From NCBI GenBank assembly GCA_020697715.1, contig JAEHCO010000002.1:252667-316666 (forward strand): DNA of 64,000 nucleotides, given 5' to 3'. The stretch is from Methanobacteriota archaeon (GTDB lineage: Archaea > Thermoplasmatota > Thermoplasmata > SG8-5 > JAGLSY01). A program made the translations under genes and the position numbers. Each line of letters starts with the position of its first letter. Position 1 is the stretch's first letter. Below, in pieces: positions 11,432 through 51,165 of this stretch. A model generated the notes under the pieces. That model saw nothing but the letters and a program-made list of their open reading frames with translations, made no database searches and was not told where the DNA came from.

Positions 11432-11506
11432 GGGCGCGTAGCCTAGCCAGGATATGGCGCTAGCCTTCTAAGCTAGAAGCCAGGGGTTCGAATCCCCTCG
11501 CGTCCG
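11432..11506 (+). tRNA. tRNA-Arg(TCT)
   Basis: Acceptor GGGCGCG/CGCGTCC+G; anticodon arm CTAGC-CTTCTAA-GCTAG; T-arm AGGGG-TTCGAAT-CCCCT. Confidence 0.95.
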
Positions 11507-11529
11507 TTTTTTATTTTTATATAATTAGA

Positions 11530-11643
11530 GGGCGCTAGGTGGATTCGAACAGGGTTCGATGAGATTTTTCTGAATGAAATGGAGAAAAAGCGAGCAAGAC
11601 CGGGATGCTGGAGGCGGACAGGTCGTTGATCCCCTCGCGTCCG
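11530..11643 (+). repeat. tRNA-linked structured unit (type A) ending in a copy of the tRNA-Arg 3' end
   Basis: GGATTCGAAC at 11541; ATCCCCTCGCGTCCG at 11629-11643 is identical to 11492-11506; body similar to the units at tRNA-Leu and tRNA-Gly. Confidence 0.85.
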
Positions 11644-11660
11644 CTCTTTTTTTAAAATGC

Positions 11661-12449
11661 TCATATCATTAGTAGGCTCAATGCCATGATGAACATTCCC
11701 ACCATCACACCACCCAGCACGACATGGCTCTTGCCATAGCTATGGGCTGTGGGTAATATCTCATCAAGGGATATGTAGACCATTATCCCAGCCACAAAGG
11801 CCAATAAACCTGCCAGAAGGGCATCGGACATGAAATTATAGAGCACGATAAAGCTGAATATACCGCCAATTGGCTCGGCGATACCGGAAAGGAAGGCGTA
11901 TTTGAAGGCCTTGATCTTATCGCCTGTGGCTGCATATATGGGTGCGGCCACAGATATTCCTTCAGGTATATTGTGCAGGGCTATTGCGATGGCAATGACC
12001 ATACCGAGTCTGATATCTGTCAGGCTCGCACTAAAAGTTGCGATCCCCTCTGGAAAGTTATGGATCGTGATGGCAATTGCTGTGAAGGTGCCCACTCTCA
12101 TCAGGCGGCATTCGGCCTCACTTCTCTTTTTCTTTTCACATTTTTTGCCGCCAGTAACTCTACTAAAATGATGTGGATTGAGTTGTTTTGGTAGAAGAAA
12201 ATCTATCAGGGCGATGAATATTATTCCGGTAAAGAAGGTTAATATGCCAGCTATTTCTCCTATACCTTCTATCGCATCGGGTAGAAGTTCCATGAAAGAA
12301 ACATATACCATGACCCCGGCTGAAAGTCCCAGAGAAAAGGTGAGCAGGGTTTTATTTGGCTTTTTCTGTAGCAGTACGACTGCTCCTCCAACTCCTGTGG
12401 AAAGACCCGCTATGGTGGTCAGTAGCAATGCGAATGTCACACTTTCCAA
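11661..12449 (-). CDS. zupT: ZIP family zinc transporter
   Basis: IHNFPEG and LHNIPEG signatures, about 8 TM helices. Confidence 0.92.
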   Translation of the reverse strand: MESVTFALLLTTIAGLSTGVGGAVVLLQKKPNKTLLTFSLGLSAGVMVYVSFMELLPDAIEGIGEIAGILTFFTGIIFIALIDFLLPKQLNPHHFSRVTGGKKCEKKKRSEAECRLMRVGTFTAIAITIHNFPEGIATFSASLTDIRLGMVIAIAIALHNIPEGISVAAPIYAATGDKIKAFKYAFLSGIAEPIGGIFSFIVLYNFMSDALLAGLLAFVAGIMVYISLDEILPTAHSYGKSHVVLGGVMVGMFIMALSLLMI

Positions 12450-12548
12450 ATTCTCACCTACAAATGACTTAATGGTGATAGTGTATATAAAAATTTCGGC
12501 TTACCGAAAACTATTGCGTTTACCGAAATCGAGTGCTATTTAGTCTGA

Positions 12549-13121
12549 TCAAACATTCCCAGATCTGATTATCATGCCAAGTGATCCCATGAGCAAAGCC
12601 GATAATACAAGCACCGTCCAGTCTCCTGTGAAACCTACAATTCCCATGAGAGAGATGAATAGCATGAAGGTGGACATTAGGAAAATGATACCGATGACTA
12701 TCAGTATCTTACTTCCCGAGTACCTGATGAAGCGTCGTGTACTGCCATTTACATCATCGAGCCTCACATAAGGTGCGGTACGGATCGCCAGAGAGCTAAG
12801 GTCATAATAGGCGATCAATATTACCATGAAACCGAACATGGAGATTATATCCGTGGCCTTTGCAAAGGTCAAGAAATGGAGACCTCCCACCATGATACAG
12901 GAGATACCTATTATCGACTGGCGGTTTCTCTCAAGTTTATTTGCCAGATAATCTCTTAATTCTCCTTTTCCCGGAACTCTTATGAAAAGACCGGTCACAC
13001 CAAGGGCAATGCTCAGTGCCAGTATGCTGATATGATCCGTCGTATTTGCCCCAGTATCATAAGTTTGCAGAAGATGCCATAATGATAGGCAGATAAGGAT
13101 GATGAAGGAAATAATGGCCAT
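12549..13121 (-). CDS. Multi-pass membrane protein (MoxR operon)
   Basis: Hydrophobic 190 aa ORF, co-oriented downstream of the DUF58 gene. Confidence 0.65.
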   Translation of the reverse strand: MAIISFIILICLSLWHLLQTYDTGANTTDHISILALSIALGVTGLFIRVPGKGELRDYLANKLERNRQSIIGISCIMVGGLHFLTFAKATDIISMFGFMVILIAYYDLSSLAIRTAPYVRLDDVNGSTRRFIRYSGSKILIVIGIIFLMSTFMLFISLMGIVGFTGDWTVLVLSALLMGSLGMIIRSGNV

Positions 13122-13216
13122 CAGATTGACACCTGGCTTGTCATGTTCATTTTCACTTATTCCCAGAGTGGAGTATCCATTTACAGAGATCTCATTTCCG
13201 TCGTTTGCCTGCTCCT

Positions 13217-14488
13217 CTAAAATCTGGCTCTTAACCTTTCCACCCCCTTCAATGCTTTTGCCAGTGGCTCAGATGGATCCCAATCCACAACCCTGGCATA
13301 ACGATATAATTCTGATATTAGATTATCTCTTTCCAATCTCTTCAGGTTCTTGGCCATCTCCAGCTCATCGGAATCTTCAATTATATGCCCTTCCACTCTG
13401 ATAGGGGATGGAGAAATAACAACAACATCAAAACCTCTGGCACAGAGGTCTGCAATGCTCTGCACGATCTTGTAGTCCACAAGTGGGGTTATGACGATGA
13501 TCTGAGATTCAAGTGGAAAATGCCTGGTCACCATCCAGCGTGCGTCATCGAAGGGCATGCTCCCTCCTGGCTGGACATCCATTAATTTTTCAGATATGCG
13601 ATAATACTGCCTCTTTCCAAAGGCAGGATAGACCTCATCGATTATGTCCCTGAGCACAATTAGACCAACACGATTTTTGTCCATGAGTATGTGGGAGGCT
13701 ATCGTGGAGGCCGCTCTCACCCCATGCTCTACCGTGTTCTCATCTGTGTTCCCTACATTCGTCTCGGTCCTGGCATCCAGCATGATGGTCACATCACCAC
13801 TGCATTCACTCTCAAATTCATTTGTCATAAGCTGATCACGTCTGGCCGATGCCTTCCAATTGATCTTTCTGAGCTCATCACCTGCTACATATTCTCGAAT
13901 TCCAAAGAATTCCGTGCCCACGCCCACCCGGCGCGCCTTGATCATGCCTATCCAGTTCCTCGTCTTTCTTGGAGCGATCTTGAGTCCCTTGGAGGACTCT
14001 ATCTCGGATGTGACAGATATTGGTGTTATCAGTTTGATCTCTGTTTGCTGTGTGTAGAAATCCATAAAATCCTTTGCTCTTATCCACACACCTTTGAATT
14101 CGAATCTGCCTCTATATGGGCAGATTATCTGGTATTCAAGGTCGTATTCCTCGGCTTCCTTCAATGTGAGGATGGCTTTATTGCTACCCTCAGATACATT
14201 TACATAAGGTGGTATCAGATCTTCAATTTCAAGACACTGGATAGCCGGCCCTGTATTCTTTATGCGAAGCTTAACATGGATATTATCTCCTGTTGTCACT
14301 CTGTTCTCATCTATCGAACGGCTGATGTCAAGAGAATAGCTGGGATCCTTGAACATGGTGATGGATACCACCAGGTATATTATCAGAGGTAGGGATATTG
14401 CGATAAGGCTACCACTACGAAGCCATACACCCATGACGATGCAGGCTATGGCGGAAGCCACTATCCAGAATCCTTTTCTCGATCTCAT
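13217..14488 (-). CDS. DUF58 domain protein
   Basis: EFFGIREYVAGDELRKINWKASAR motif; adjacent to MoxR. Confidence 0.9.
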   Translation of the reverse strand: MRSRKGFWIVASAIACIVMGVWLRSGSLIAISLPLIIYLVVSITMFKDPSYSLDISRSIDENRVTTGDNIHVKLRIKNTGPAIQCLEIEDLIPPYVNVSEGSNKAILTLKEAEEYDLEYQIICPYRGRFEFKGVWIRAKDFMDFYTQQTEIKLITPISVTSEIESSKGLKIAPRKTRNWIGMIKARRVGVGTEFFGIREYVAGDELRKINWKASARRDQLMTNEFESECSGDVTIMLDARTETNVGNTDENTVEHGVRAASTIASHILMDKNRVGLIVLRDIIDEVYPAFGKRQYYRISEKLMDVQPGGSMPFDDARWMVTRHFPLESQIIVITPLVDYKIVQSIADLCARGFDVVVISPSPIRVEGHIIEDSDELEMAKNLKRLERDNLISELYRYARVVDWDPSEPLAKALKGVERLRARF

Positions 14489-14516
14489 TTGCTCTCACTC
14501 ATTTTTTTAATTAGCC

Positions 14517-15467
14517 TTATTTCACCTTTGGAACCGGAATATCCAATACGACCTTGTCGACGATAACTTCTGTCTTGATGCCCTTGATCCATGGATCTGG
14601 TTTGAGTATTATCCTGTGTGCCAAAGCAGGCACGCACATCTCTTTTATGTCATCTGGAAGAACATAGTCCCTCGCTTGCATGGCCGCACGTGCCATCGAT
14701 AAACGCATGAGAGCCAGTGATCCTCTTGGACTGGCACCGACCTCGACATGACCATGCTTTCTTGTATTCTGCACTATCTGCGCGATATATTCTTCAATAT
14801 CAGATTCCACATGCACTTCCTCAATAGCTGCCTGCATTGCGATGATCTCTGCTGGAGAACTGACCACCGATATGTCAACATCCTCTTTCTTCCTGGTTCG
14901 TCTTCTTCGAAGGATCTCTGCCTCTCCTTTGAGGGTTGGATAGCCTATGTCCAATCGCATTATGAACCGATCGATCTGCGCCTCTGGGAGTGGATAAGTC
15001 CCTTCATACTCGATGGGATTTTGTGTAGCGATGACTATGAAAGGAGCTGGAAGTTTGTGCGTATCACCTTCCAATGTTGTCTGGCGTTCCTGCATTGCTT
15101 CAAGCAATGCAGATTGTGTTTTTGGCGGAGCCCTGTTTATCTCGTCTGCCAGTAGTATATTCGTGAACACAGGTCCTTTCCTCAGTTCGAACTCATTGGT
15201 CTGCCTGTTCAGGATATATGATCCCGTAATATCTGCTGGAAGTAGATCGGGTGTGAATTGAACCCTTCTGAAATCGCACCCGAGAGCTCGGGCGAATGTA
15301 TTCGCCATCAGGGTCTTTGCCAATCCAGGAAAATCCTCGAATAGGACATGTCCATTTGCCAGAGTGGCCAGCATCATATTATCTATGACATCGTCCTTCT
15401 CAACGATGGCCTTGGCCACCTCATTCTTAATTACATTACATTTTTCAGACAATTCCTTTATGTTCAT
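14517..15467 (-). CDS. MoxR family AAA+ ATPase
   Basis: EDFPGLAKT, RVQFTPDLLPADITG, LADEINRAPPKTQSALLEAMQE and GASPR motifs. Confidence 0.95.
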   Translation of the reverse strand: MNIKELSEKCNVIKNEVAKAIVEKDDVIDNMMLATLANGHVLFEDFPGLAKTLMANTFARALGCDFRRVQFTPDLLPADITGSYILNRQTNEFELRKGPVFTNILLADEINRAPPKTQSALLEAMQERQTTLEGDTHKLPAPFIVIATQNPIEYEGTYPLPEAQIDRFIMRLDIGYPTLKGEAEILRRRRTRKKEDVDISVVSSPAEIIAMQAAIEEVHVESDIEEYIAQIVQNTRKHGHVEVGASPRGSLALMRLSMARAAMQARDYVLPDDIKEMCVPALAHRIILKPDPWIKGIKTEVIVDKVVLDIPVPKVK

Positions 15468-15570
15468 TCCGAACCCCTCATTTTATTCGGGCTTTTGAAT
15501 GTTCGAATAATGTTCAAACATTCAACACCTCTCACATGCTCATTCTCACTTTCAGTATGTTCATTAATTC

Positions 15571-16266
15571 TCATTCCCACACCTCTACTTTATCCAATAT
15601 CTCTTTGATCTCTAACATGAACTTACGACCACTTTCCTTCTTTTCCCTGTCGTTCTTCTTTCTCGCTATCCTGTCACTCCACCCCTCTGCCTTCTTCTGA
15701 TTGGCCAGTATGAATGTTGCTAGATCATCATTATCTACTATCTCTCTGAACCTATCTGGATCTTCAAGGGCCTTTTCTATCTCCCTTGTGGTCATACCTC
15801 TTCCCAGCCTGATCTTGTCGATGATGGCTTCTGTCATCATCTCTTTCATAAGTTGCTGGCTGTAACTGTATCCGCCAGCTCCCCTTGTGATTATATCATT
15901 CACACGCGAAAGCTCACCTGAGAAGTATTTCTTTTCCAATATCGTTCTTTTCCAGATCTTTTTCTGGATACCTATGTTCATAATGTAGATAGTGTACAGG
16001 CCAATGGCCGCGGTGGTCAGCACGACCATTATCCACCGCATCCCTCCGCTTACAAAGGAAATTGAGATAAATGGGATTGAAAGTAGAATAAGATAGAACA
16101 CAAGTACCAGTGTATTTATGAGCATTTCCCTCATGCCAGATGGGCCAAGCAATCTCTCTGCTGCCAGCACTTCTTCCACATGTTCAGGCGTATCGGATGG
16201 TGTGATCTCTACATGAGTTATAACATATGAAGATCTATCAAGTGTGTCTTTGATATTATTTGCCAT
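15571..16266 (-). CDS. Membrane protein (MoxR operon)
   Basis: ORF with two TM segments; start chosen at MANNIK, overlapping the upstream stop. Confidence 0.65.
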   Translation of the reverse strand: MANNIKDTLDRSSYVITHVEITPSDTPEHVEEVLAAERLLGPSGMREMLINTLVLVFYLILLSIPFISISFVSGGMRWIMVVLTTAAIGLYTIYIMNIGIQKKIWKRTILEKKYFSGELSRVNDIITRGAGGYSYSQQLMKEMMTEAIIDKIRLGRGMTTREIEKALEDPDRFREIVDNDDLATFILANQKKAEGWSDRIARKKNDREKKESGRKFMLEIKEILDKVEVWE

Positions 16267-17233
16267 CCTTGGCACCCCCTTCATCAATATCGCCATCTTC
16301 TGCTATGTTCTCATCCACTTCCTCGATAATGAGATCATCTTTTATGCTACCGAGAGCAAGCATGGCCTTATTGCGCATTTCTTCTGATAGGTCGTGGTCA
16401 CTGTATCTGGCTTCCTCGAATATCATTATAAGATCATGTAATTTATCATCTGCAACTGGTAGTTTGGAGCCGATCATTGATTCAAATTCACGGGGAGTCA
16501 TATGCTCCTCATCTGATATTCCATGCTTGGATGCCAGCTTGCACATATCAATGTAACATCTCATGATGGACGATCTTACATCTGTTCCACTTGTCATGTC
16601 GTCCATCGCTTTCTGGATGGTCTGGCCTACTTCTTCGGTCATTGCCTCGATATCTATGTCTGATAGGGATTCACTTCTTAGATTAGTTATCTGGCTAATG
16701 GCAAATATGCCCAGGGCTATAATCGCAACAGCTCCTACCACGAACATGATCGATATGGCCATATCCATGCCTTCTGGCTTCACATTCGATGGCTCTGTGT
16801 AATCCGCTGAACCCGTTCCATCTGATACTGTATAACCGCTCTCCAGGAGCTCATTATGTGTATATTCACTTTTCTCGGCATCTGTATAAGCGAATACTCC
16901 AACGAAAAAGAGGATGGCCAGTCCGCCACCGATCATAGGATATATTAATGATTTCAAAAAGGCCTTGTCCTTACTAAGCGCTCCCCAGATGATCCCTCCT
17001 ATGGTGATGATCAGACCTATGGCCGTGAGTCCTATCATCATATATCTGACTGTCTCAGCCACTGTACTACTGGAGGCCAGATATGATCCTCCTTCTTCTT
17101 GCTCGGGGGTATCCAGTGTGATCTCTTCACCAATGTTCAGCCTCTCGACATTGAAGATAAGATTACCTATGCTGAAAACGATCACCATCAACATTAATAT
17201 GGTGAATAATTTTTTTTTGGAGCCTGAAACCAA
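16256..17233 (-). CDS. DUF4129 domain membrane protein
   Basis: TM N-terminus; C-terminal MTPREF...LIMIFEEARYS motif. Confidence 0.85.
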   Translation of the reverse strand: MVSGSKKKLFTILMLMVIVFSIGNLIFNVERLNIGEEITLDTPEQEEGGSYLASSSTVAETVRYMMIGLTAIGLIITIGGIIWGALSKDKAFLKSLIYPMIGGGLAILFFVGVFAYTDAEKSEYTHNELLESGYTVSDGTGSADYTEPSNVKPEGMDMAISIMFVVGAVAIIALGIFAISQITNLRSESLSDIDIEAMTEEVGQTIQKAMDDMTSGTDVRSSIMRCYIDMCKLASKHGISDEEHMTPREFESMIGSKLPVADDKLHDLIMIFEEARYSDHDLSEEMRNKAMLALGSIKDDLIIEEVDENIAEDGDIDEGGAKDGK

Positions 17234-17342
17234 TACGCGACCTCATAATGGGAATATAAAAGGAGTATTTATGCAATCGGTAGATTGCAATATAGATCGA
17301 AAATTTATCCAATCTCTATTATCGTGGACCATGGACGAAAAC

Positions 17343-17385
17343 TTTAAATAGGGTAATGTCAATAGTTGTCTGACAAACGTCAGAC
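17343..17385 (+). promoter_or_regulatory. TATA box plus downstream 7-4-7 palindrome (candidate operator)
   Basis: TTTAAATA (17343-17350) preceded by purine-rich CGAAAA; GTCTGAC-aaac-GTCAGAC at 17368-17385. Confidence 0.5.
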
Positions 17386-17405
17386 GGCGTTAGGATGGGA
17401 TAAAC

Positions 17406-17738
17406 ATGGATGCAAAATCATTAATGAATGGTATAACAGAGAAAGCCAGTGCGGTAGGAATGACCTTTTCAGATTACATAAAAACAAATTATGATCCACA
17501 AGACTTGGACAATACCCAGGCAGTTGTGGATATTGATCTGTCTGACAACAAAGGTAAAAATGATAAGCTCAGGCAGAACAATAACATAAAAAGGAGCAAT
17601 ATGGGCTTTTCAGGGATGGATACTCATTTCCAGGACCCTATGCATACGAATGCCAATGCAAAGTTGGAACATATCAAAGCAGATTATACAGCTATGCATG
17701 TTGGCCAGCCAATGAGCAGAGAAGCTGTTCTGGTTTGA
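17406..17738 (+). CDS. Hypothetical protein
   Basis: 110 aa ORF with its own TATA box, RBS-like GGGA and a downstream hairpin. Confidence 0.6.
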   Translation: MDAKSLMNGITEKASAVGMTFSDYIKTNYDPQDLDNTQAVVDIDLSDNKGKNDKLRQNNNIKRSNMGFSGMDTHFQDPMHTNANAKLEHIKADYTAMHVGQPMSREAVLV

Positions 17739-17772
17739 GCCAATTGAATAAGCCCCCCTCTAAAATTAGAAG

Positions 17773-17802
17773 CAGCAAATGCGTGATCATCCGCATTTGC
17801 TG
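17773..17802 (+). terminator. 11-bp perfect hairpin
   Basis: CAGCAAATGCG / CGCATTTGCTG followed by AT-rich sequence. Confidence 0.55.
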
Positions 17803-17927
17803 AGCTCTATAATTTATTTAATTCATCATTCAATTTTAGTTAATTTTTAGTTAATTATAGATAAATGTAATTGATGATAATATTTATACATAAACAGATA
17901 TTTACCACGTCAGTAGGGGACAATACC

Positions 17928-18614
17928 ATGGAACGTTTGAAAACTTATATAAAGGGACTTGACGAGCAATTGAATGGTGGAATACCAAAGGGTCATGTGG
18001 TCTTACTGGCAGGTAAGCCAGGAACAATGAAATCATCCATTGGCTACAATATACTTTATCAAAATGCCTTGAAGGAAGGCAAGAAAGGGATATACATGTC
18101 CCTGGAGCAAGGTAGGGACAGTCTACTCGAGCACATGGGCGAACTTGGAATGGATCATGCAGCAGTTGATAGTATGGTCAATATAGTGGATATGGGATAT
18201 TTGAAATCAAATGTCGATACTTCCGAGGAAGGACAGAGCTGGATGAGGATATTCAAGATGTATGCGGAGAATATTCAGGCCAGCATGGATTATGAGATAT
18301 TGGTTGCAGATTCATTGCCTGCCATTGAAGTAATGGCAGACGTCAAGAACAAGCGTGCGGAATTATTCAGATTCTTTGGCTGGCTCAGAGAACTTGGAGT
18401 CACTGTTTTTGTGATATCCGAGGATGCCAGGGAGGGAACTCTCAACAGGGACGAGGACTTCCTTAGTGATGGAATAATTCATCTGGATCTCAAGAGGGAT
18501 GACAATAATGTCAATCTATTCCTCGGTGTTGCGAAGATGAGAAAATCCAACCATGCCAGGGGATACTTCCCACTGATATTCGATCAGGATGGATTTGAGG
18601 TCATTCAGGAATAG
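17928..18614 (+). CDS. KaiC/RAD55-like RecA-superfamily ATPase
   Basis: KTYIKGLDEQLNGGIPKG, Walker A GKPGTMKS, SLEQ, Walker B LVADSL, DGIIHL and KMR motifs. Confidence 0.88.
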   Translation: MERLKTYIKGLDEQLNGGIPKGHVVLLAGKPGTMKSSIGYNILYQNALKEGKKGIYMSLEQGRDSLLEHMGELGMDHAAVDSMVNIVDMGYLKSNVDTSEEGQSWMRIFKMYAENIQASMDYEILVADSLPAIEVMADVKNKRAELFRFFGWLRELGVTVFVISEDAREGTLNRDEDFLSDGIIHLDLKRDDNNVNLFLGVAKMRKSNHARGYFPLIFDQDGFEVIQE

Positions 18615-18625
18615 TGGCGTTCCTG

Positions 18626-19085: not shown

Positions 19086-19089
19086 AACC

Positions 19090-21262: not shown

Positions 21263-21390
21263 TGATGGTGACCAGACACAAATATATATTAAGCTATTTG
21301 TATATACTAATTTTTTGGTAAGTAATAGAATATTGGTGTTGCATCATGTCAAGATCTCAACCAATAAACCTTTATATTGCTTGATTATTT

Positions 21391-22101
21391 TTGAATTCAA
21401 GAGATAGAGGAAGGTATATGGGATTATTTGACTTCATGATGGATACTATTCTGGAGCTTGCCCAGAAGCAGTTCCGACCATTTTTATTGTTCTTATCTAT
21501 GATATCATTGCTCAGTCTGCCATTTATGGCCTGTATTATTGCACCTTCTTCGATCACACATGATCATGATCTGATCGATCAAGAATATGGGAAATTCATG
21601 GAGATCGATGATATATTTCTCAAGCCCATCTCTATAACAGAGAATTCAAGTTATCAGATCATCCATTTTTCCAATGATACAACAGATGTATTTGAGAATC
21701 ATACGCGTGCTCAAATATACGATCTGGTGATGTCCGATCAAGGCATCAGTTTCTCCATGATAACTCGTGAATTGAAGATGGCCAATGGTGTTGTACAGTA
21801 TCATTTGCAGACCCTGGAGAGACTTGGCCTGATAAAGTCAGTACGCGTGGGAAAATTCACAAGATATTATCTATCTGGCACGGAAGATAATGGGCTTACA
21901 TTGACCCAAGAAAAGATACTCAGCGAAATACAGAATAATGGTGAGATCACACAATCCGAGATCGGCTCCAATCTAGGTATCAGTCGCCAGGTCGTTAATT
22001 ATAATGTCAAACAACTGCTCGATTCAAATATCATTCAGAAGAATGAAAATGATCCCACTTCCAATCGTTGCACTTATCTTGTCTCTTATAATTACAGATA
22101 A
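21391..22101 (+). CDS. Double winged-helix transcriptional regulator with N-terminal hydrophobic segment
   Basis: RAQIYDLV...GVVQYHLQTLE and ITQSEIGSNLGISRQVVNYNVKQL HTH motifs; start uncertain. Confidence 0.8.
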   Translation: MNSRDRGRYMGLFDFMMDTILELAQKQFRPFLLFLSMISLLSLPFMACIIAPSSITHDHDLIDQEYGKFMEIDDIFLKPISITENSSYQIIHFSNDTTDVFENHTRAQIYDLVMSDQGISFSMITRELKMANGVVQYHLQTLERLGLIKSVRVGKFTRYYLSGTEDNGLTLTQEKILSEIQNNGEITQSEIGSNLGISRQVVNYNVKQLLDSNIIQKNENDPTSNRCTYLVSYNYR

Positions 22102-25973: not shown

Positions 25974-26074
25974 GATAATTTCAAGATATAAGGATATCGG
26001 CGGAAAATATACACAATCCAATCAAACATTATATAAACATCTTGATTTTACAGGGTTTACCCAAAGAACACCAT

Positions 26075-26158
26075 GCGGGGATAGCCAAGCCTGGTCAACG
26101 GCGCTAGATTCAGGGTCTAGTTCTTAGTGATTCGCCGGTTCGAATCCGGTTCCCCGCA
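26075..26158 (+). tRNA. tRNA-Leu(CAG)
   Basis: Acceptor GCGGGGA/TCCCCGC+A; anticodon arm CTAGA-TTCAGGG-TCTAG; long variable arm; T-arm GCCGG-TTCGAAT-CCGGT. Confidence 0.95.
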
Positions 26159-26170
26159 TTTTTCATTATA

Positions 26171-26258
26171 GGATTCGAACGAAGTTCGATCGAGAATTTA
26201 TTCATAAATTCGAGAGAGCACCGCAACGAAGTGTAGGTGCGAAATCCGGTTCCCCGCA
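26171..26258 (+). repeat. tRNA-linked structured unit 1 (type A)
   Basis: Starts GGATTCGAAC-GAA-GTTCGA; ends AATCCGGTTCCCCGCA (26243-26258, identical to 26143-26158). Confidence 0.85.
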
Positions 26259-26270
26259 CCTTGTTTTATA

Positions 26271-26416
26271 GGATTCGATAGTAGTAGTCGGTTGCCGTAA
26301 ACCCACCATTTTCATTCAGCTAAACTCGAAGCCAGACGTATGCTTCGAGAATTTGGGTTTATGGCCTACGATGGGAACATCATGCCAGGGGCATATCGTT
26401 CACACGGTTCCCCGCA
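26271..26416 (+). repeat. tRNA-linked structured unit 2 (type B)
   Basis: Starts GGATTCGA; ends CGGTTCCCCGCA (26405-26416); homologous to unit 3. Confidence 0.85.
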
Positions 26417-26496
26417 TTTTTCATTTTTAGATGCGACTTCACCCATAGAACCCACGCATCTATTTTATCAAACTCATTTATGTGTTTGATTCGATA

Positions 26497-26647
26497 GGAT
26501 TCGAAAGTAGTAAACGGTTGCCGTATGCTCATCGAAAAATATTCATCTGAACTCGAAGCAAGACGTAAGCTTCGAGATTTTGAGCATATGGTCTACGGAT
26601 GTGAACATCATGCCAAAGGCATATCGTTCACACGGTTCCCCGCACCA
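26497..26647 (+). repeat. tRNA-linked structured unit 3 (type B), ends in CCA
   Basis: Starts GGATTCGAA; ends CGGTTCCCCGCACCA (26633-26647). Confidence 0.85.
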
Positions 26648-44268: not shown

Positions 44269-44323
44269 TTTCCATTCCTTCTTTACTGCTTATCTGTAAA
44301 ATTACTCAAGCATATCAAGGTAT

Positions 44324-46078
44324 TCATTCTCTCATTATCAGGACATAGACCTTATTGGATTCTGGCCCGCCTGAATATATCTGGTTTGATCTTTCGATCA
44401 GGTGATCGAAGCTCTCATTTGAAATGACCACCCTTTCTAAAATGGATATCTGTGCTCCAATGGTCGTCCATTCATCAGATACCAGGATCGTATCATTTCC
44501 ATATATATCGTCTTCTTCCAAAAGCCATGGTAATTGCCAATCACAATTGACATCATAGTATGGATGTATGATATCTCCGTTCCTCTGGTCTGATGCTATG
44601 TCCTGTATGCCCGCATATGCCACCCATCCCATTGCCTCAAATTCATGGTCATAAGTGGTCTCTTGTATGCCGAAGGCCTCCACCCTTTCATAAGCAAGAG
44701 GGACAGATGCGACACACAATAAACAGAATCCTATGAACAAAGCCACAGGTAATATTTTTGCCACTGGCAATTTAATTCCCAGTATGCTATTCATAGGCTT
44801 ACTGGCAGTTGCATATGTTATCTTAATTAGGTAAGCGATACCTATACCACTGACGATCGCCAATGGGATATCTATGAAATTGTATGCCCTGAAGACCAGT
44901 GTGAAATTGAATATGTCCAACCCTCTCAGTGATGAGAAGATCATGAGTGATAAAGGTGCGAAGAACATGGCGATGATCATTGGCTTATGTTTGAAGCTCG
45001 AGTATCTCAGTATATTGAATCCCGCCATGCCTATGAGTGCGAGGATGAAATAGGGTAACATCAGGTCAAGAAGTAAGGCCGTGGTCTTTGGCGCGCTGGT
45101 GAAAAGAGTGATCCTGCTACTTATGTACATGATCAGGATGCCTATGACGACCACCAGTGTCTTCTCATCAAAAAGGGCGAAAATGGAAAGATCGCCCTTC
45201 TTTGTCTTCAATGGTAATATGAACCATGGCTTTGAAGTTACTGGTGATGATATTAGTATGTGTATGAGCAGGGCGATTATGCATACTGAGAACATAAGTG
45301 CCGAATCATTTAGATTGTTCACCTCGGAGAAGAATTCCATATTCGTGACCTTGTAATAATAGATCACGATAAGACCCAGAGCGGGTCCCAGTAGTATCTC
45401 GGTCGCTACGTGTTTGAAGTATCTTTCCTCATGTTTATTGGCCACTATTATTGTATAAGCGGTCATGGTGGTGATGGTGATATAAGCAATAAGGCTGGAA
45501 AGGTGATGGACGAAGGGCAGAAGCAGTAGCAAGGCCACGGATATGTATCTGAACTTATTGTCATCTCTAAGGCTGTATGTGTAGAATAGAAGGCATAGAA
45601 GAACAATGCCCAATAGTTCTTTCATTGCCGCCGTGGTCACATAAACGAAAAGTCCTGTGAAAGCAAGGAAGAAACCTGCCATGAAGGCCGCCATCTGGTT
45701 CTTGATGATCTTCAGCACGAAAGCGTATATTATTATGACCGATATTGAGCCAATGAAGGCACAGAAATAAGGTATCAGGGTCAATGGTTCGATACCCGTT
45801 ATCAATGAGAATTGGGATAGTAAAAGGGAAAATATGGGCAATTTCATATTATAGCCTAATAGGCCTGAATAGGCTGCATGATCAGGAATGTGGCTTGTGG
45901 ATATCATTATCTCGGATATCCTAACAAGTGGGAAACCATCTATATTGAAGGGCAGGGAGGATGACATTGTCGGTATAAGACGAATGATGAATGCCAGTAA
46001 GAACAATAGTATCATGATGGGTATGCTGTATCTGCCGTAATTATCGTTGCTACCACTACTGCCATTTTCCCCACTCAT
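44324..46078 (-). CDS. Large polytopic membrane protein (possibly GT-C-like)
   Basis: About 13 TM helices; IRLIP...NIDG after TM1; HHLS motif; soluble C-terminal domain. Confidence 0.6.
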   Translation of the reverse strand: MSGENGSSGSNDNYGRYSIPIMILLFLLAFIIRLIPTMSSSLPFNIDGFPLVRISEIMISTSHIPDHAAYSGLLGYNMKLPIFSLLLSQFSLITGIEPLTLIPYFCAFIGSISVIIIYAFVLKIIKNQMAAFMAGFFLAFTGLFVYVTTAAMKELLGIVLLCLLFYTYSLRDDNKFRYISVALLLLLPFVHHLSSLIAYITITTMTAYTIIVANKHEERYFKHVATEILLGPALGLIVIYYYKVTNMEFFSEVNNLNDSALMFSVCIIALLIHILISSPVTSKPWFILPLKTKKGDLSIFALFDEKTLVVVIGILIMYISSRITLFTSAPKTTALLLDLMLPYFILALIGMAGFNILRYSSFKHKPMIIAMFFAPLSLMIFSSLRGLDIFNFTLVFRAYNFIDIPLAIVSGIGIAYLIKITYATASKPMNSILGIKLPVAKILPVALFIGFCLLCVASVPLAYERVEAFGIQETTYDHEFEAMGWVAYAGIQDIASDQRNGDIIHPYYDVNCDWQLPWLLEEDDIYGNDTILVSDEWTTIGAQISILERVVISNESFDHLIERSNQIYSGGPESNKVYVLIMRE

Positions 46079-47301
46079 TGTTCTGCCCCCAATAATGATA
46101 TAAGTTCGGGTATGGCATCGTCACTGCTCTTGTCAGCATCGCTGATCATGGCCTGTGGATTGGCATTTAAGAGTGCCTCATTCACAATTATGCCTGAAAT
46201 GATGAAGATCAACATGGTGGAAATGCCGATCTGTGCAAGGATGGTAGAATCTACCATTGGTCTTATGGTCTGGCCGAACATGAGTAATAGTGAATGTGAT
46301 CCAATTAGGTTAACTATCACATAGCCTGCAAATGTTCCCAATATGGAGGCTGGGATGGATATCAGGATTATGTCCTTGGCTATTAGCTTTCTAAGATAGT
46401 TCTTGTTCGCTCCTATCGCGCTCAGGGTACCAATGTCTGGCCTTCTTTCGATTATGGCCCGTGCGATGATGGCAGTCGCTCCTATGAATGTAAGTGCTAT
46501 ATCCAGTATGATGAATGTCAATACCACTATCTTGATGCTATCTCCACCTTCTTGAATGAATACGCTGACAAAGCTTCCTCCAGAATCCTTGAATTGCTCT
46601 GGCTCATATTTGAAGGCCACGGTCAATTGTTCTTTTTCTTCTTCTGTAAGATTGGTGTTCACAGCGGTATCTGTTCCGCTCTGGTCACTTATTATAACGG
46701 GTTCATCCTTCTCTTCCAGCTCATCCATAAGGGTGGTTCTATTGGTGGCCTTGACCCTTATACTGGATACATGATCTGATCCAAGACCAGCAAGTTCTCT
46801 TGCTATGTCGAGAGATACCAATGCGTCATCTGCAGATGAAGGACTGTTATAGATCGCATCTATCTTAAATTGATATATACCTGGCCTTGTTGAGCCTGTG
46901 AATATAATAAGATCTCCAATTTTCAAACCTGCCCTCGTGGCGAGTTTTTCACCAATGATAACAAATTCATTGGTTTGTGGGATCTCACCCTTTACTATCT
47001 CACCATCTTCAAGTTCAAAATATTTGTCGAGAATGACTCCTCTGGTGATGACTGGATTATCACCAATCATGCAGAATGCATATATCTCGGGACTTGCGAC
47101 GACATTACCGCCTTCATTAAGTTCCAATGCTAAAGATGAGCTTAGGGAGGCAGTTGAGTTGACCTGTGAAAGTGTCATGATGTCCTCACCAAATACCTTG
47201 TTCGGAGATGACTGGATCCCTAGAAGCATGGGTATTGATGAACTGAATACCAGGGTGCATAGAAATAGACCAATGATCGTCTTTTTCTTCAGAAGCATCA
47301 T
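46075..47301 (-). CDS. FtsX/MacB-like ABC permease
   Basis: ERRPDIGTLSAIGA motif; extracellular domain. Confidence 0.82.
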   Translation of the reverse strand: MMLLKKKTIIGLFLCTLVFSSSIPMLLGIQSSPNKVFGEDIMTLSQVNSTASLSSSLALELNEGGNVVASPEIYAFCMIGDNPVITRGVILDKYFELEDGEIVKGEIPQTNEFVIIGEKLATRAGLKIGDLIIFTGSTRPGIYQFKIDAIYNSPSSADDALVSLDIARELAGLGSDHVSSIRVKATNRTTLMDELEEKDEPVIISDQSGTDTAVNTNLTEEEKEQLTVAFKYEPEQFKDSGGSFVSVFIQEGGDSIKIVVLTFIILDIALTFIGATAIIARAIIERRPDIGTLSAIGANKNYLRKLIAKDIILISIPASILGTFAGYVIVNLIGSHSLLLMFGQTIRPMVDSTILAQIGISTMLIFIISGIIVNEALLNANPQAMISDADKSSDDAIPELISLLGAEQ

Positions 47302-48395
47302 TGTGTATCCCTCCTTTCCAGAATCTTGGATGCTTTGATGGATGGCAGAAGACCGCCAATAAATCCTGCTGCCAATGATAATGAAAGTGGAAGGAGCAAT
47401 GAATTTATTTTGATCATGGGTATAATGATGGTATTAATTCCAAATAGAGACGAGATGGAAACAACTCCATTCACGACACATATTCCCAATGCGATACCCA
47501 ATATACCACCTGCCATCGTGATGAAAAGTGCCTTTAGAGTGAATATCCCTATTATCACTCTTTTCTTTGCTCCCAGCCCTCTCAGATTATTGATGGTCGC
47601 TTTGTGGTATTGTATCTCAATGGACATTATGGAATATACTAAAAGTATCACGATTATGCCAGTGGTCAGAACTATTGACCATAGATTATCCTCCACCTGA
47701 TATATGCCCGATTCGAAGAAGGCTACCACGCTGGTGGTCGACCTGGACTTGAGTCCGTGATCATCCACTATACCTTGAAGATCTTCATCTGCATCAAAGA
47801 CTATGAGAAAGGAATAATTATTGTCCAAGCCGGGTGAAAGCTCTATCATCTTTCCCTCTGAGACCATGATCCAATCATTTGGGAATATGAGATTGGGGGG
47901 ATATAATGAGGTTAGATTTATATAATTATAATTATATTCATTCTCTAATTTTAATCTGCTGCCCAGTGAGGTATCGAAACCATTGGTCTTCAGTCGATTT
48001 ATGGATATATTGCCCAGCAAAGCATTGTTGCCAGCGCTTTCATTGGGGAAATTAAAAGCGATGTTATTCATGGGATCATAGATGGAGACCGCATACAATC
48101 CATCCATGTACTGGCCACGATCATTCGTGACATTGATGTCTGTGAACTTAATGGCTACATAATTATCGATCTCTAATAATATGTCATTGCCAATAACACT
48201 CTTTGAGATGTCCTCATCCGAATATATCATTACAGGACCTTGGTCGAATGTTGTGGTGACTCTCTCCGTACTGTCATGTAGCCCTCCTGCGATCGCAATG
48301 GTGCCTGTGAGATAGGCAAGGCAGAAGGCGATGCCTATCATTGTCGTGAATATCCTTTTATTGGATTTCATTGCTATTCTGAGGAATGGGTGCAA
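47298..48395 (-). CDS. FtsX/MacB-like ABC permease
   Basis: INNLRGLGAK motif; LPSIKASK end. Confidence 0.82.
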   Translation of the reverse strand: MHPFLRIAMKSNKRIFTTMIGIAFCLAYLTGTIAIAGGLHDSTERVTTTFDQGPVMIYSDEDISKSVIGNDILLEIDNYVAIKFTDINVTNDRGQYMDGLYAVSIYDPMNNIAFNFPNESAGNNALLGNISINRLKTNGFDTSLGSRLKLENEYNYNYINLTSLYPPNLIFPNDWIMVSEGKMIELSPGLDNNYSFLIVFDADEDLQGIVDDHGLKSRSTTSVVAFFESGIYQVEDNLWSIVLTTGIIVILLVYSIMSIEIQYHKATINNLRGLGAKKRVIIGIFTLKALFITMAGGILGIALGICVVNGVVSISSLFGINTIIIPMIKINSLLLPLSLSLAAGFIGGLLPSIKASKILERRDTQ

Positions 48396-48601
48396 GACCT
48401 ATACTCTCCTTTTGAATTGTACTGGTTCTAAGGGTTTATATCTCTTCAGTGAGCCCTCATTGGATCATCTCCAATATCTCAATCTTTATATATCTTATCT
48501 ATGCATTTTAATGTATTTGTGTATCCAATCTAAGAGTATTATATATATAAAACATCTGTATAAATATGAATATAAAAGATCCATGGTTTTCACTATGCAT
48601 T

Positions 48602-48635
48602 CAAAAAGAAAAGGCGGGGCGGTGAGGCCGCCCCG
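48602..48635 (-). terminator. GC hairpin plus T tract after the ftsZ-like gene
   Basis: CGGGGCGG / CCGCCCCG followed on the minus strand by CCTTTTCTTTTTG. Confidence 0.7.
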
Positions 48636-48668
48636 AGTGAGGAGAGGTTGATATGTATTATCCAAAGA

Positions 48669-49439
48669 TCACGCGAACATTGGAGATTCAGTATCGGCCT
48701 GCACATCCAATGGCTGGTCGATCATATTCTCCATGTACACTTCTTCCTGGAACTCACTGTTGAGGCTCATGACATCATCGGCGATCGTCGCGATGAAGGA
48801 ACGATTCATACGGTCCCTTATATCATCGATGACTCCGGCGATGGTCCTATCAATGACAGACAGAGCGGAGGACATTTGAATATCCGGGCTCAATCTGAGC
48901 AATGAATCATTGTCAAGAACTATCGTGTTCTCTGTGACTTGCTGTAATTGCATAAGGCTGTTCTCGGCGATGGCGCGCCTTCCGACCTCTGCACTGAATG
49001 GCATTACCACGATGCCAAAATCCACAATGCCATTTCTCTTGGCAACACTTCCGACAACATGGGCAATACCTGTGCCGGTCCCGCCACCCAATCCGGCGAC
49101 TATGAAGATGATATCTGTATTCTTCAGTGATTGTTTGATCTCATCAACTGACAGTTCTGCTGCATATTCTGCAACTTCCACAAATCCTCTGGAATCCTCC
49201 CCGAAGGTGATGGACCTCCCAATGTGGATCTTCCTGTCTGCTGAAATATTCTCCAATGATCTCTGGTCGGTGTTTATGGCTATGGTGCTAACATCTCTCA
49301 GGTTTCCCCCGAGTCGATCAATAATTGCGCAACCAGCACCACCACATCCGACAACAGCTATCCTGGGCTCAATGTTTCCGGCACTGATCAGATTAATGAT
49401 CTCGTGCGTATAATTATTTCCCGCTGATGTCTGGCTCAT
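48669..49439 (-). CDS. FtsZ/tubulin-family GTPase, short form (N-terminal domain only)
   Basis: VVGCGGAG, AINTD, GLGGGTGTG and MPFSAE motifs; 256 aa from the ATG at 49439 (GGAGATGA RBS). Confidence 0.85.
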   Translation of the reverse strand: MSQTSAGNNYTHEIINLISAGNIEPRIAVVGCGGAGCAIIDRLGGNLRDVSTIAINTDQRSLENISADRKIHIGRSITFGEDSRGFVEVAEYAAELSVDEIKQSLKNTDIIFIVAGLGGGTGTGIAHVVGSVAKRNGIVDFGIVVMPFSAEVGRRAIAENSLMQLQQVTENTIVLDNDSLLRLSPDIQMSSALSVIDRTIAGVIDDIRDRMNRSFIATIADDVMSLNSEFQEEVYMENMIDQPLDVQADTESPMFA

Positions 49440-49686
49440 TTTTTCATCTCCATATATTGACCAAATTTGGCATTTCTGAGTTTGTCGACCAAACTCAGGG
49501 CTCGGTTTATGGCGAATGCCAAATATGGTATTCGGGCAGGGTTCGCCAAAAGTCATGGAGATCTTGAATCTAGTTGTTAGAGTGCATCCCAACACTTTTC
49601 TGCGTCTTCATCGGCCAGCTTGAACCAGCTTTTTTCTTCATATTCCACTCTTTTAGCGGAACCCTTACCTATTTTTGCTCATCCCA

Positions 49687-50061
49687 TCATTTTTCAATGA
49701 TCTTCTTCCCTGATCTCTTTACGACATCAATGCTTCGTCCGGTCATCTGTTCCATTCCTTTTGCTGCCTTCATTGCGGAATCTATTCTTTCATGGTCGAA
49801 ATAGTGGTCTATCGCCATATGGAGTGCGTTCTCTCTGGATCTGTAGTATCCTTTCTCTACCAAAGTGTCGATGTAATCCAGTACTAGTGGGGGGACCTCT
49901 ACCTGTATTGATGTGAGATTCTTCAGGTTCTCTTTTTGATTGACCACAGCCATTCTTATGAATTCCGATCTGCTTGAATAGCCTAGGTCTTCCACCAACC
50001 CGTCGAGCTCGTTCAGCTCTTTTTTCTGAAATCTCACAGAGATCTTTTCATCGATTTCCAT
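49687..50061 (-). CDS. Tandem ribbon-helix-helix (CopG/NikR-like) regulator
   Basis: KISVRF...ELDGLVEDLGYSSRSEFIRMAV and a second IQVEVP...GYYRSRENALHMAI. Confidence 0.85.
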   Translation of the reverse strand: MEIDEKISVRFQKKELNELDGLVEDLGYSSRSEFIRMAVVNQKENLKNLTSIQVEVPPLVLDYIDTLVEKGYYRSRENALHMAIDHYFDHERIDSAMKAAKGMEQMTGRSIDVVKRSGKKIIEK

Positions 50062-50079
50062 CTTTATTCGTCTCCATTT

Positions 50080-50185
50080 TGTACTACATCTGTTTGTTTT
50101 GCCATCTTATTCATGTAGGACAAGCAATACCCTAATGGTGTTATAAGTATATATAATCTTTGTCAAATGTCATACATTGTCATAC
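50080..50185 (-). promoter_or_regulatory. TATA box flanked by repeated TGTCATAC-like boxes
   Basis: TGTCATAC at 50168 and 50178, TGTCA at 50161, GTAGGACA at 50115, TGTACTAC at 50080; TATATATAA at about 50148-50156. Confidence 0.5.
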
Positions 50186-50190
50186 GGCTA

Positions 50191-50430
50191 TTAAAATTCA
50201 TCAATATCGTGAAGTCCGATGGTCTTTCGAACCTCGGAGAAAGGACAGGCCGTCAAACCATGTGGATAACAATCATGTCCTTCGGATGATATGCAACTGC
50301 GACATTCCATGACGATGGCATTCAGCATGAGATGTTCAAGATCCGAGTAGCTCATGGAGATCTTCATGTTCGCGTTCTGATCTATTCCAAAGTTCTCATC
50401 ACAAAGCCCTATCGCTGAAACACCAACCAT
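50191..50430 (-). CDS. Small Cys-rich hypothetical protein
   Basis: CRSC...C...CPF; lies between the two RHH genes; start uncertain. Confidence 0.55.
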   Translation of the reverse strand: MVGVSAIGLCDENFGIDQNANMKISMSYSDLEHLMLNAIVMECRSCISSEGHDCYPHGLTACPFSEVRKTIGLHDIDEF

Positions 50431-50436
50431 ATTATC

Positions 50437-50832
50437 TCATCTCCTCGCAACTTTCTTGCCCTTATTCGCACTGTCTGCAAGAGCCATGTCATTCACTATG
50501 TTCTCTGCCACGACCTTTTCCAGCTTCTCGCGTCCATCTGTATAATATTCGGATAGGCCATCGCACCATTTATTGAGGGCGATGAATATGGCTTGGTCGA
50601 GGTCTTTTGCATCTCCATTTCTGATGAACATCTCTGCTTTCTCCATCAGTCTTTTCGGGATCGTGACCTTCACTACATCCGAATTCCACATGTCTTTTTT
50701 ATCATCGATGTAGTTGTAAATGGCCTCACGGACTGCTTCACTCCTATTATTGATATTGTTCATACTGGCTATCCCTTCAAGCTCATCCAGTATCTCCGCT
50801 TCGACCCTGATATCTATTCTTTCCCTCGCCAT
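50437..50832 (-). CDS. Ribbon-helix-helix regulator (tandem RHH)
   Basis: RIDIRVEAEILDELE...NRSEAVREAI; GGTGA RBS. Confidence 0.85.
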   Translation of the reverse strand: MARERIDIRVEAEILDELEGIASMNNINNRSEAVREAIYNYIDDKKDMWNSDVVKVTIPKRLMEKAEMFIRNGDAKDLDQAIFIALNKWCDGLSEYYTDGREKLEKVVAENIVNDMALADSANKGKKVARR

Positions 50833-50974
50833 ATATAATCACCAATAACCGACAATTTGTCGGGTGTAGTTTATATAGTTTTCCTACCTGTATAACACTG
50901 TATATATTTAATATTATCGCGTGTGAGATAATATAACAAGTCAATTAGATGAAAGACGAAATAAAAAAAATCAA

Positions 50975-51077
50975 ATGCAGGTGTCGGGATCCATTACTTG
51001 TTGCCAGGGACAACAAGTAACGCTCGTTTTTTCTTCACTATTTTCAGAAAAAACTCGTCGAACTCCGTTCGAATCCC
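50975..51077 (-). repeat. tRNA-linked structured unit (type A) ending in a copy of the tRNA-Gly 3' end
   Basis: Minus strand starts GGGATTCGAAC-GGA-GTTCGA; ATGCAGGTGTCGGGAT at 50975-50990 is identical to 51091-51106. Confidence 0.85.
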
Positions 51078-51091
51078 TATATAAAAATATA

Positions 51092-51165
51092 TGCAGGTGT
51101 CGGGATTCGAACCCGAGTGATTGGCTTGGAAGGCCAAGATCATAGCCAGGCTAGATCACACCTGC
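51092..51165 (-). tRNA. tRNA-Gly(TCC)
   Basis: Acceptor GCAGGTG/CACCTGC+A; anticodon arm TTGGC-CTTCCAA-GCCAA; T-arm TCGGG-TTCGAAT-CCCGA. Confidence 0.95.

Follow-up and report, generated by a model that had tools for sequence, protein, structure and literature searches.

tRNA-tail cassettes: a conserved and apparently undescribed family of folded non-coding elements behind Thermoplasmata tRNA genes

The stretch of DNA analyzed here (hereafter the window) covers 64,000 nucleotides (nt) of contig JAEHCO010000002.1 from an uncultured Thermoplasmata archaeon, and each of its tRNA genes is followed by a small non-coding cassette in which an inverted copy of the T-arm, a set of hairpins and a direct copy of the tRNA 3' end are combined. 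These cassettes form a conserved family that occurs only behind Thermoplasmata tRNA genes and is apparently undescribed. Their fold is selected on the tRNA-sense single strand, and their arrangement at the tRNA gene resembles the outcome of an insertion into the T-loop. The interpretation that is considered marginally probable is that they represent non-autonomous tRNA-tail insertion cassettes, which would be moved in trans and recognized as a folded single strand.

Organization of the tRNA loci

The window contains three tRNA genes, for Arg, Leu and Gly, on which ARAGORN and Rfam agree. An earlier note on this DNA, made from its letters alone, had claimed a shared layout behind every tRNA of the window, and inspection of the sequence bears this out at all three: the tRNA is followed by a T-run spacer, the inverted T-arm copy GGATTCGAAC, three hairpins, a copy of the tRNA 3' end and a T-rich stretch. 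The parts of such a unit, termed family A, are an AT-rich spacer that opens with a T-run, GGATTCGAAC, a 3-nt loop, GTTCGA, (Y)GAG, the hairpin P3, CGAG(AGA)GC, the hairpin P4 and a copy of tRNA positions 58/59-73. The distal 3'-end copies read ATCCCCTCGCGTCCG at Arg (15 nt), ATCCCGACACCTGCAT at Gly (16 nt) and AATCCGGTTCCCCGCA at Leu (16 nt). Exact GGATTCGAAC has six occurrences in the window, namely the three tRNA T-arms (on the opposite strand) and the three elements. The note had missed that the inverted copy is able to span the entire 3' end of the tRNA: at Arg, 18/21 positions of this copy (11530-11550), including the ten bases of GGATTCGAAC, agree with tRNA positions 53-73 read as reverse complement (counted by eye). 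It had also overlooked two additional units at the Leu locus, which are of a distinct kind termed type B (26271-26416 and 26497-26644), and a separate hairpin repeat between them. The type B units carry GGATTCGA at their start and CGGTTCCCCGCA at their end. As for coding capacity, only chance open reading frames (ORFs) of 30-76 amino acids overlap the window elements, and neither an integrase fragment nor cargo was detected among them. The features of the three loci are listed below, where f denotes the spacer and G003 is a congeneric genome.

11432..11506, + strand: tRNA-Arg(TCT); positions 59-73 are the proximal repeat copy
11507..11529, + strand: Arg spacer f, T-run and AT-rich, terminator-like as read from the sequence
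11530..11550, + strand: Arg inverted 3'-end copy (positions 73 to 53), 18/21; 5' strand of P1 and P2; the G003 orthologue is also 18/21
11551..11628, + strand: Arg family A body with P2 loop, GTTCGA (equal to positions 53-58), TGAG, P3, CGAGC and P4
11629..11643, + strand: Arg distal 15-nt copy of positions 59-73; closes P1
11644..11655, + strand: Arg T-rich run past the distal copy
26074..26159, + strand: tRNA-Leu(CAG)
26160..26170, + strand: Leu spacer f, tttttcattata type
26171..26242, + strand: Leu family A body, short form (5' strand of P1, P2, P3, P4)
26243..26258, + strand: Leu distal copy 1, of positions 58-73, then CC
26271..26404, + strand: Leu type B body, unit 1, opening with GGATTCGA; three long hairpins
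26405..26416, + strand: Leu distal copy 2 (CGGTTCCCCGCA); pairs with the 5' GGATTCG of its own unit
26417..26496, + strand: Leu spacer with the type C hairpin repeat: AGATGCGAC..CGCATCT, ATCAAAC..GTTTGAT, TCGATA
26497..26632, + strand: Leu type B body, unit 2
26633..26647, + strand: Leu distal copy 3 (CGGTTCCCCGCA), then CCA; probably the original gene end with encoded CCA, by analogy with the occupied and empty tRNA-Cys pair
51091..51166, - strand: tRNA-Gly(TCC)
51078..51090, - strand: Gly spacer f (atatttttatata)
50991..51077, - strand: Gly family A body with GGGATTCGAAC, P2, CGAG-P3-CGAGC and P4; fold z-score -4.8
50976..50990, - strand: Gly distal copy of positions 59-73
50955..50975, - strand: Gly T-rich run past the distal copy

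Restriction to tRNA genes in the genome and the class

The genome that holds the window (G000 in the coordinates below) comprises 2.12 Mb on 34 contigs and is 93.8% complete. The strict pattern GGATTCGAAYNNNGTTCGAN{1,2}GAG has five matches in it, all directly behind tRNAs, and the reversed control pattern has none. A copy of the last 12 nt (one mismatch allowed) lies within 600 nt downstream of 11/36 tRNA genes, where about 0.05 would be expected by chance according to our own arithmetic. A first covariance model, built from eight copies, likewise yields eight genome matches, and 8/8 are located behind tRNA genes: Lys-CTT, Arg-CCT, Arg-TCT, Gly-TCC, Glu-CTC, Leu-CAG, Leu-TAG and an intron-bearing tRNA on contig C30, which was recognized by eye. 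The last of these (G000:C30:10480-10573) was missed by both ARAGORN and the tRNA model list; together with Arg-CCT (L099 150-250, G000:C11:413150-413249), it is an example of an intron-bearing tRNA gene followed by a family A cassette.

In public genome contigs, the strict pattern identified 20 loci, 7 of them archaeal (Thermoplasmata-type metagenome-assembled genomes) and 13 bacterial. Of the archaeal loci, 6/7 adjoin a tRNA and one is cut by a contig end, versus 0/13 of the bacterial loci next to a tRNA. A second covariance model (R2), built from 21 matches and applied to a sample of 151 Thermoplasmata genomes, produced 42 matches in 20/151 genomes of the class, distributed over at least seven families. 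Single-contig genomes (G048 and G075) are among those with a match. For 15 of the 19 matches that were new, the final 12 nt recur no more than 170 nt upstream, and a tRNA is predicted by ARAGORN upstream of 8; one match with neither (G091:C33) sits behind a tRNA-His tail, as judged by eye. Two weak model matches look false, one in G132 that falls in a coding-looking region (from an earlier search) and one in G014 (E = 0.0095). The target tRNAs include Ser, Leu, Arg, Gly, His, Gln, Ala, Glu and Lys.

The proposal of one homologous, non-coding family across differing tRNAs is thereby supported, with occurrence only behind tRNA genes of many specificities.

Fold and strand asymmetry

Minimum-energy folds of the copies result in a four-way junction. 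Here, P1 is formed by GGAT with the ATCC of the distal copy and P2 by TCGAAC-nnn-GTTCGA, P3 is closed by CGAG/CGAG, which is able to form C-G, G-A, A-G and G-C, and P4 is the second branching hairpin. In consensus form, the family reads GGAT(T/G)(T/C/A)GAAC(C)-nnn-(G)GTTC(A/G)(A)-CGAG-P3-CGAGC-P4-nTG-(A/G)ATCC, and the stem sequences of P3 and P4 vary freely between copies.

For the analysis of covariation, 21 matches (E up to 0.001) were aligned to the first model. In this alignment, which is fitted to the model and whose rows include orthologues and are not independent, standard pairs occupy 91.9% of cells versus 69.1% in shuffles, and double-sided changes are present at 24/29 pairs. Pairing falls to 33-54% if the partners are slid by 1-3 columns. 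The pair that flanks the P3 closure covaries (CG 15, UA 4, UG 2), while the tandem G-A closure CGAG/CGAG is conserved. The covariance model that the note had called for has been built, and covariation supports the view of the note that a multi-hairpin junction is closed by pairing between GGAT at the start and ATCC at the end of the unit.

One amendment concerns the strand. Among the paired cells of the 21-row alignment, 19 G-U/U-G combinations contrast with 0 A-C/C-A, and 39 G-A/A-G with 2 C-T/T-C; type B units show 10 G-U versus 0 A-C in a 42-pair consensus. Fold energies for the sense versus the antisense strand are -39.4 vs -28.0, -36.7 vs -27.2 and -23.0 vs -21.0 kcal/mol. A double-stranded protein-binding site would not give such asymmetry. 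What counts is the fold of the tRNA-sense single strand, be it RNA or one DNA strand. The junction postulated in the note stands, with the addition that it is strand-specific and that a single-stranded form is of importance.

Inverted copy, insertion geometry and the displaced tRNA end

The inverted T-arm copy described in the note is present, but it does not merely reproduce the universal T-loop. The 5' strand of P1 tracks the T-stem of each tRNA (Gly GGG, Lys TGGG, Glu GGCGGA, Gln CAGG), and the copy, whose length ranges from 8 to 21 nt, in some cases runs over the acceptor strand. Long versions are found behind tRNA-Gln in locus L035 (19/21) and in the Arg element of G003 (18/21). The latter reads GGACGCG, which is the exact complement of the 3' strand and not the tRNA 5' strand GGGCGCG.

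GTTCGA (positions 53-58) and the distal copy (59-73) add up to one copy of the last 21 nt of the tRNA, split at 58/59 by CGAG-P3-CGAGC-P4, and the inverted segment is able to pair with both halves of this split copy. With e for the new end, f for the spacer, a for the inverted copy, b for the 3-nt loop, c for GTTCGA as the copy of 53-58 and d for P3 plus P4, the order of a unit is tRNA(1-58), then e f a b c d, then the old 59-73 followed by the old flank. To judge from this order, the arrangement equals a T-loop insertion at 58/59, in which the cassette restores the gene and shifts its original end ~100-160 nt downstream. The palindrome centre lies at positions 52/53, outside the T-loop. Across copies, the direct repeat measures 15-38 nt, with a minimal repeat of 15-16 nt in most family A copies.

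The direction of this displacement can be read from tRNA-Cys. The empty gene in G003 is followed by 'cca ttat...', and the same letters follow the distal copy in G000, where the proximal copy is followed by 'tttt'; 'cca' likewise ends the third Leu copy of the window and, in G011, an array of two units. The unit therefore entered beside the tRNA body and brought a new end, along with a T-run in this genome, while the original end was displaced. The direct 3'-end copy reported in the note is thus present, with 15-16 nt in the window, and requires a correction of its polarity: the distal copy represents the original gene end, and the new end is supplied by the element. A reverse-transcription origin of the distal copy, with a start after 58 and CC/CCA tails, was rejected, as the empty tRNA-Cys of G003 is itself followed by cca and no RVT_1 gene was found.

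Gain, loss and exchange of cassettes

The comparison of occupied and empty sites between related species, proposed in the note, revealed both states, which fits mobility. The Ala-CGC gene is occupied in G003 and empty in G000, the Cys gene shows the reverse, and the Gly-CCC gene, which has no element in G000, is followed by a partial one in G001. Two full tandem units each were observed in G011, G061 and G074, and a second unit in G035 is partly masked. Behind a tRNA-Arg of G118 (L138, G118:C38, downstream of 14538), the second full tandem unit is split in the 3' strand of P2 by an insert of ~55 nt. G000 and G003 have different types of P4 at their orthologous Lys and Arg-CCT sites, and the distal copy at Glu follows the species-specific acceptor stem, reading CGGAAGCA in G000 and CGAGAGCA in G003. 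Cassettes are thus shown to be gained or lost between species, to be tandemly duplicated and to exchange hairpin modules.

Candidate enzymes

The note had suggested a co-occurring integrase, nuclease or reverse transcriptase as an object of search. The genome encodes an XerA-like tyrosine recombinase, which is the single PF00589 protein and lies on a different contig from the window, and one IS200/IS605-type Y1 (HUH) transposase (G000:C1:16359-16709), neither of which could be linked to the elements. The Y1 transposase is present in 18/20 genomes with the family versus 37/131 without it (Fisher p = 1.6e-7, relatedness ignored) and, within the order, in 9/9 versus 5/9 (p = 0.04), where the least complete genomes make up the negatives; both phylogeny and genome completeness confound the association. 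The ends of IS200 elements were rejected as the source of the cassettes, as no shared motif was found in the flanks of seven Y1-transposase loci in five genomes. For TnpB, only an 18-bit sub-threshold match was obtained. An IS110 system of the bridge-RNA type was also rejected, as the genome has no PF02371 match.

The IS200-type transposase gene adjoins an odd tRNA with a long variable arm and the anticodon loop GAA (tRNA-Phe of 90 nt according to ARAGORN; G000:C1:16359-17145, L121). This tRNA is duplicated in G003 (G003:C50:1232-2357, L126), and a normal tRNA-Phe(GAA) is encoded elsewhere in the genome.

Relation to known systems

The absence of these elements from Rfam, which the note had anticipated, was confirmed, as a search of Rfam 15 returned tRNA matches only and nothing on the elements at E up to 5. 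Full-text searches of the literature turned up no description of such elements, and the palindrome reported behind Methanopyrus tRNAs (PMC5217627) differs from them. The repeat footprint at the tRNA tail is classical; the object that makes this footprint is not. Integrative elements that use tyrosine integrases and tRNA genes share with the cassettes the repeat from T-loop to 3' end, the restored gene, the displaced old end and the tandem accretion at one tRNA. In contrast, they are kilobases long and encode their integrase, whereas the cassettes are ~100 nt in length, lack an ORF and have in common a strand-specific fold and an inverted copy of the target end with its centre of symmetry outside the T-loop. 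The inserts measure 100-160 nt, and none of them contains an integrase gene. The cassettes also depart from miniature inverted-repeat transposable elements (MITEs), as they have no terminal inverted repeats between the direct repeats, a repeat length of 15-38 nt and no related autonomous element that could be found.

Closer parallels are offered by systems that act on folded single strands. Integron attC and CTX-phage attP(+) are folded single-strand recombination sites, and the order after integration is site, cargo, inverted copy, loop and direct copy. The cassettes share this order, a one-strand imperfect hairpin that rebuilds a duplex copy of the target, and arrays at an anchor site; they differ by their tRNA anchor, by a 'cargo' that consists only of the spacer or terminator and by two extra hairpins at the crossover point, and no integron integrase or phage partner was found for them. 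The ends of IS200/IS605 elements use pairing of a guide to the cleavage site, and repetitive extragenic palindromic (REP) elements are dispersed and acted on in trans by the transposase RAYT. These systems and the miniature derivatives of IS200/IS605 resemble the cassettes in their strand-specific hairpins with a short foot motif, non-coding nature and length of tens to a hundred nt. Their units are acted on in trans by a single-copy Y1 transposase, an enzyme that 18/20 genomes with the cassette family also have. REP elements, however, are dispersed, whereas the cassettes occur only at tRNA ends with a duplicated target.

Haloarchaeal tRNA-like elements are processed by RNase P and tRNase Z, and minihelices consist of acceptor and T-arm. 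Where the inverted segment is long, P1 corresponds to such a helix of acceptor and T-stem, with its end at the discriminator base. Here, however, the T-loop is replaced by a three-helix junction, and P1 has only 4-7 bp in most copies. In Escherichia coli, the tyrT locus contains 178-bp units that repeat the 3' end of tRNA-Tyr at a single locus. They are likewise tandem units behind a tRNA that each end in a copy of its tail, but without a family across different tRNAs and without a conserved four-way junction.

Interpretation and alternative explanations

According to the interpretation favored here, that of tRNA-tail insertion cassettes, the cassette would enter the T-loop at 58/59 carrying a new tRNA end, and the old end would be pushed downstream. 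The movement would be performed by an enzyme that acts in trans and is not encoded by the cassette, with the folded single strand as the recognized form, either as a single-stranded DNA intermediate or as RNA. On the tRNA-sense strand, segment a pairs with c and the old end, by which the split T-arm/acceptor copy is re-joined as a helix, and P3 and P4 branch exactly at the junction. The inverted segment may thus serve as an internal guide to the target tRNA end. That the elements recognize the universal T-loop, as the note proposed, is an inference. Local duplication with gene conversion, or templated hairpin extension, may contribute. A more specific and distinctly doubtful version envisages guide-bearing mini-cassettes. 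Here, a ~100-nt single-stranded (DNA or RNA) four-way junction with an antisense guide to the last 21 nt would insert at 58/59 with a spare tail and a terminator by means of a host enzyme (Y1 transposase, XerA or other), and it would be mirrored at tRNA 5' ends.

Several observations weigh against the mobility of the cassettes. No integrase, nuclease or reverse transcriptase is tied to the elements, and the genome, at 93.8% completeness, has 0 matches to Cas1 (PF01867) and none to the RVT_1 reverse transcriptase or the IS110 transposase (PF02371). The CGAG-hairpin(-CGAG) motif is absent from the flanks of 7 Y1-transposase loci in 5 genomes. Among the eight covariance-model matches of the genome there is no non-tRNA, free or circular copy. 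The strict pattern found 21 loci in metagenome contigs, none next to a tRNA, which represent chance matches in GC-rich DNA; in viral contigs, a first pattern had 0 matches and a second pattern one, in a coding region without a tRNA. The covariation itself derives from the model-fitted alignment with non-independent rows described above. Recent activity in particular is argued against by the three window loci, which are occupied in G003 too, with a Gly-TCC element that is decayed in its 3' half, and this shared occupancy shows that many copies are old. The spacers are locus-specific yet common to neighbouring units (G000 Leu-TAG, G003 Leu-CAG), and the spread of repeat lengths together with the shared spacers also fits local duplication plus gene conversion. 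Finally, target switching is left unexplained, as a move to a different tRNA would require a change of both the new end and the guide if the element bears them.

The note had offered co-transcribed RNAs and decoy att sites as alternatives, and either may still apply. The main alternative, possible though rather unlikely, is that the segment from the inverted copy to the distal copy is a tRNA-linked structured RNA, whose transcription in the sense of the tRNA would begin in the AT-rich spacer or result from read-through. In the form of a tRNA-like minihelix, it might be a substrate or a decoy of RNase P, tRNase Z or the CCA-adding enzyme; it might also act as a protein scaffold built on the tandem G-A pairs or as a regulator of its own tRNA, and it would have originated by local duplication and have been spread or homogenized by gene conversion. 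Strand-specific pairing (G-U 19 vs A-C 0; G-A 39 vs C-T 2), a conserved tandem G-A closure with a covarying flanking pair and the retention of the junction motif across several families of the class all agree with an RNA. The spacers of L035 and G074/G105 are not T-runs, so co-transcription is likely there, and the long inverted copies at Arg and Gln let P1 mimic an acceptor plus T-stem helix that ends at the discriminator. In this genome, however, a T-run separates the tRNA from the element, orthologous sites can be empty, so the unit is dispensable, and the G003 Gly-TCC element has lost its 3' half to decay. The inconstant length of the inverted copy (8-21 nt) and the lack of an Rfam family match also argue against this explanation. 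A hammerhead-like or C/D-box-like reading of GAYGAG...CGAG, made by eye, was rejected, as the invariant hammerhead positions misfit and Rfam gave no match.

A direct repeat from T-loop to 3' end was reportedly set out by Williams in 2002 as a signature of tRNA-integrating elements. The cassettes could be seen as inert, functionless scars of integrase-mediated virus or plasmid integration at the T-loop, from which nearly everything between attL and attR was lost. We regard this as improbable, even though the repeat is the classical tRNA-integration signature (PMC9897764), tandem arrays have an intact unit next to the tRNA and some copies are decaying. Independent scars would not share one collinear ~100-nt fold with compensatory changes across tRNAs and families, strand-specific pairing is unexpected in double-stranded att remnants, and a palindrome centre at 52/53 does not agree with an attR core, which would need the T-loop. 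Moreover, integrase fragments and cargo are missing from the elements, and the recombinase of the genome is only XerA-like.

Aciduliprofundum boonei belongs to a related archaeal lineage. Its casposons and those of Methanosarcina mazei are located in the 3' region of tRNA genes, require the neighbouring T-loop and have 14-15 bp duplications and arrays with a shared duplication (PMC5137440 and PMC4779613). A casposase or Cas1-like integration, in which the T-arm serves as a 'leader' and staggered cuts at 58/59 and ~15 nt downstream duplicate positions 59-73, would account for the fixed left border at 58/59, the minimal repeat of 15-16 nt in most family A copies and the growth of arrays beside the tRNA, and it would make switching between tRNAs easy. 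A 15-bp duplication with an essential adjacent T-loop region (PMC5137440) and tandem arrays with one common duplication (PMC4779613) are known for casposons. The mechanism is still very improbable here, as the genome has no Cas1, the cassettes lack Cas1, polymerase and terminal inverted repeats, and repeats of 19-38 nt also occur. The duplication of A. boonei (PMC5137440) overlaps the tRNA by 5 bp only, whereas here the repeat is the last 15 nt, and such a duplication leaves the templated inverted copy (up to 21 nt) and the copy of 53-58 unexplained. Even less credible, to the point of being nearly dismissed, is a very long archaeal tRNA intron at 58/59 that is cut by the splicing endonuclease from read-through transcripts. 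T-loop introns occur in some archaea, and splicing anywhere in the repeat would yield an identical mature tRNA; against this, a strict bulge-helix-bulge motif in a repeat-compatible register was detected at 1/13 loci, and the gene is complete without splicing.

Other repeats near tRNA genes

The type C hairpin repeat of the Leu spacer (AAATGCGACTT..CCCACGCATTT, ATCAAAC..GTTTGAT, TCGA) has ~6-7 copies in the genome, some behind tRNAs and some elsewhere. In G003, one copy is located between tRNA-Arg-TCT and its family A cassette. A MITE-looking dispersed repeat, GAACATCC.CG.CC ... AGGCGAGGTTTTCGAATAGGAAGCACTCTGT ... AGTACCCCGCCC, is found directly behind tRNA-Ser-TGA, tRNA-Asn and the distal copy of tRNA-Ser-GGA, and also away from tRNAs. 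In addition, there are mirror modules of the tRNA 5' end, in which a short loop or hairpin separates a direct copy of positions 1-11/12 from an inverted copy, and the latter lies ~24 nt before the tRNA. Such direct and inverted copies of the first 10-12 nt are present upstream of tRNA-Lys, Asp, Glu-TTC and others, with three consecutive 5'-end copies at tRNA-Lys, and for the few mismatches inspected by eye, it is the antisense strand that is compatible with wobble pairing. A longer repeat at G000:C1:20070-20350 and 21370-21650 contains in each copy a hairpin, a 3'-end copy of tRNA-Thr-TGT with one mismatch and a T-run. Copies of the first three repeats are the following.

Type C hairpin repeat: window 26417-26496; G000:C11:472654(-), C11:637508(-), C12:253-285, C22:214201(-), C33:36818(-)
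MITE-looking repeat: G000:C11:36-75(-), C11:269078-269200, C11:558753-558900, C11:607462, C28:96692, C28:168717(-), C32:22107
5'-end modules: L012 1220-1370 (G000:C11, upstream of tRNA-Lys-CTT); G003 loci L068, L071, L082, L085, L086

Implications

Large integrative elements classically insert at tRNA genes. Here, the same footprint is produced by non-coding units of ~100 nt, whose strand-specific four-way junction is conserved across an archaeal class. If these tRNA-tail cassettes do move as folded, guide-bearing single strands, they would be smaller than any other site-specific mobile unit known in archaea and would provide a natural case of target recognition through a complementary segment borne by the element. 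If they are RNAs instead, they would constitute a new tRNA-linked RNA family. In either case, the cassettes account for many 'tRNA fragment' calls, and they alter both the terminators and 3' flanks of tRNA genes and the attB sites available to viruses and plasmids.

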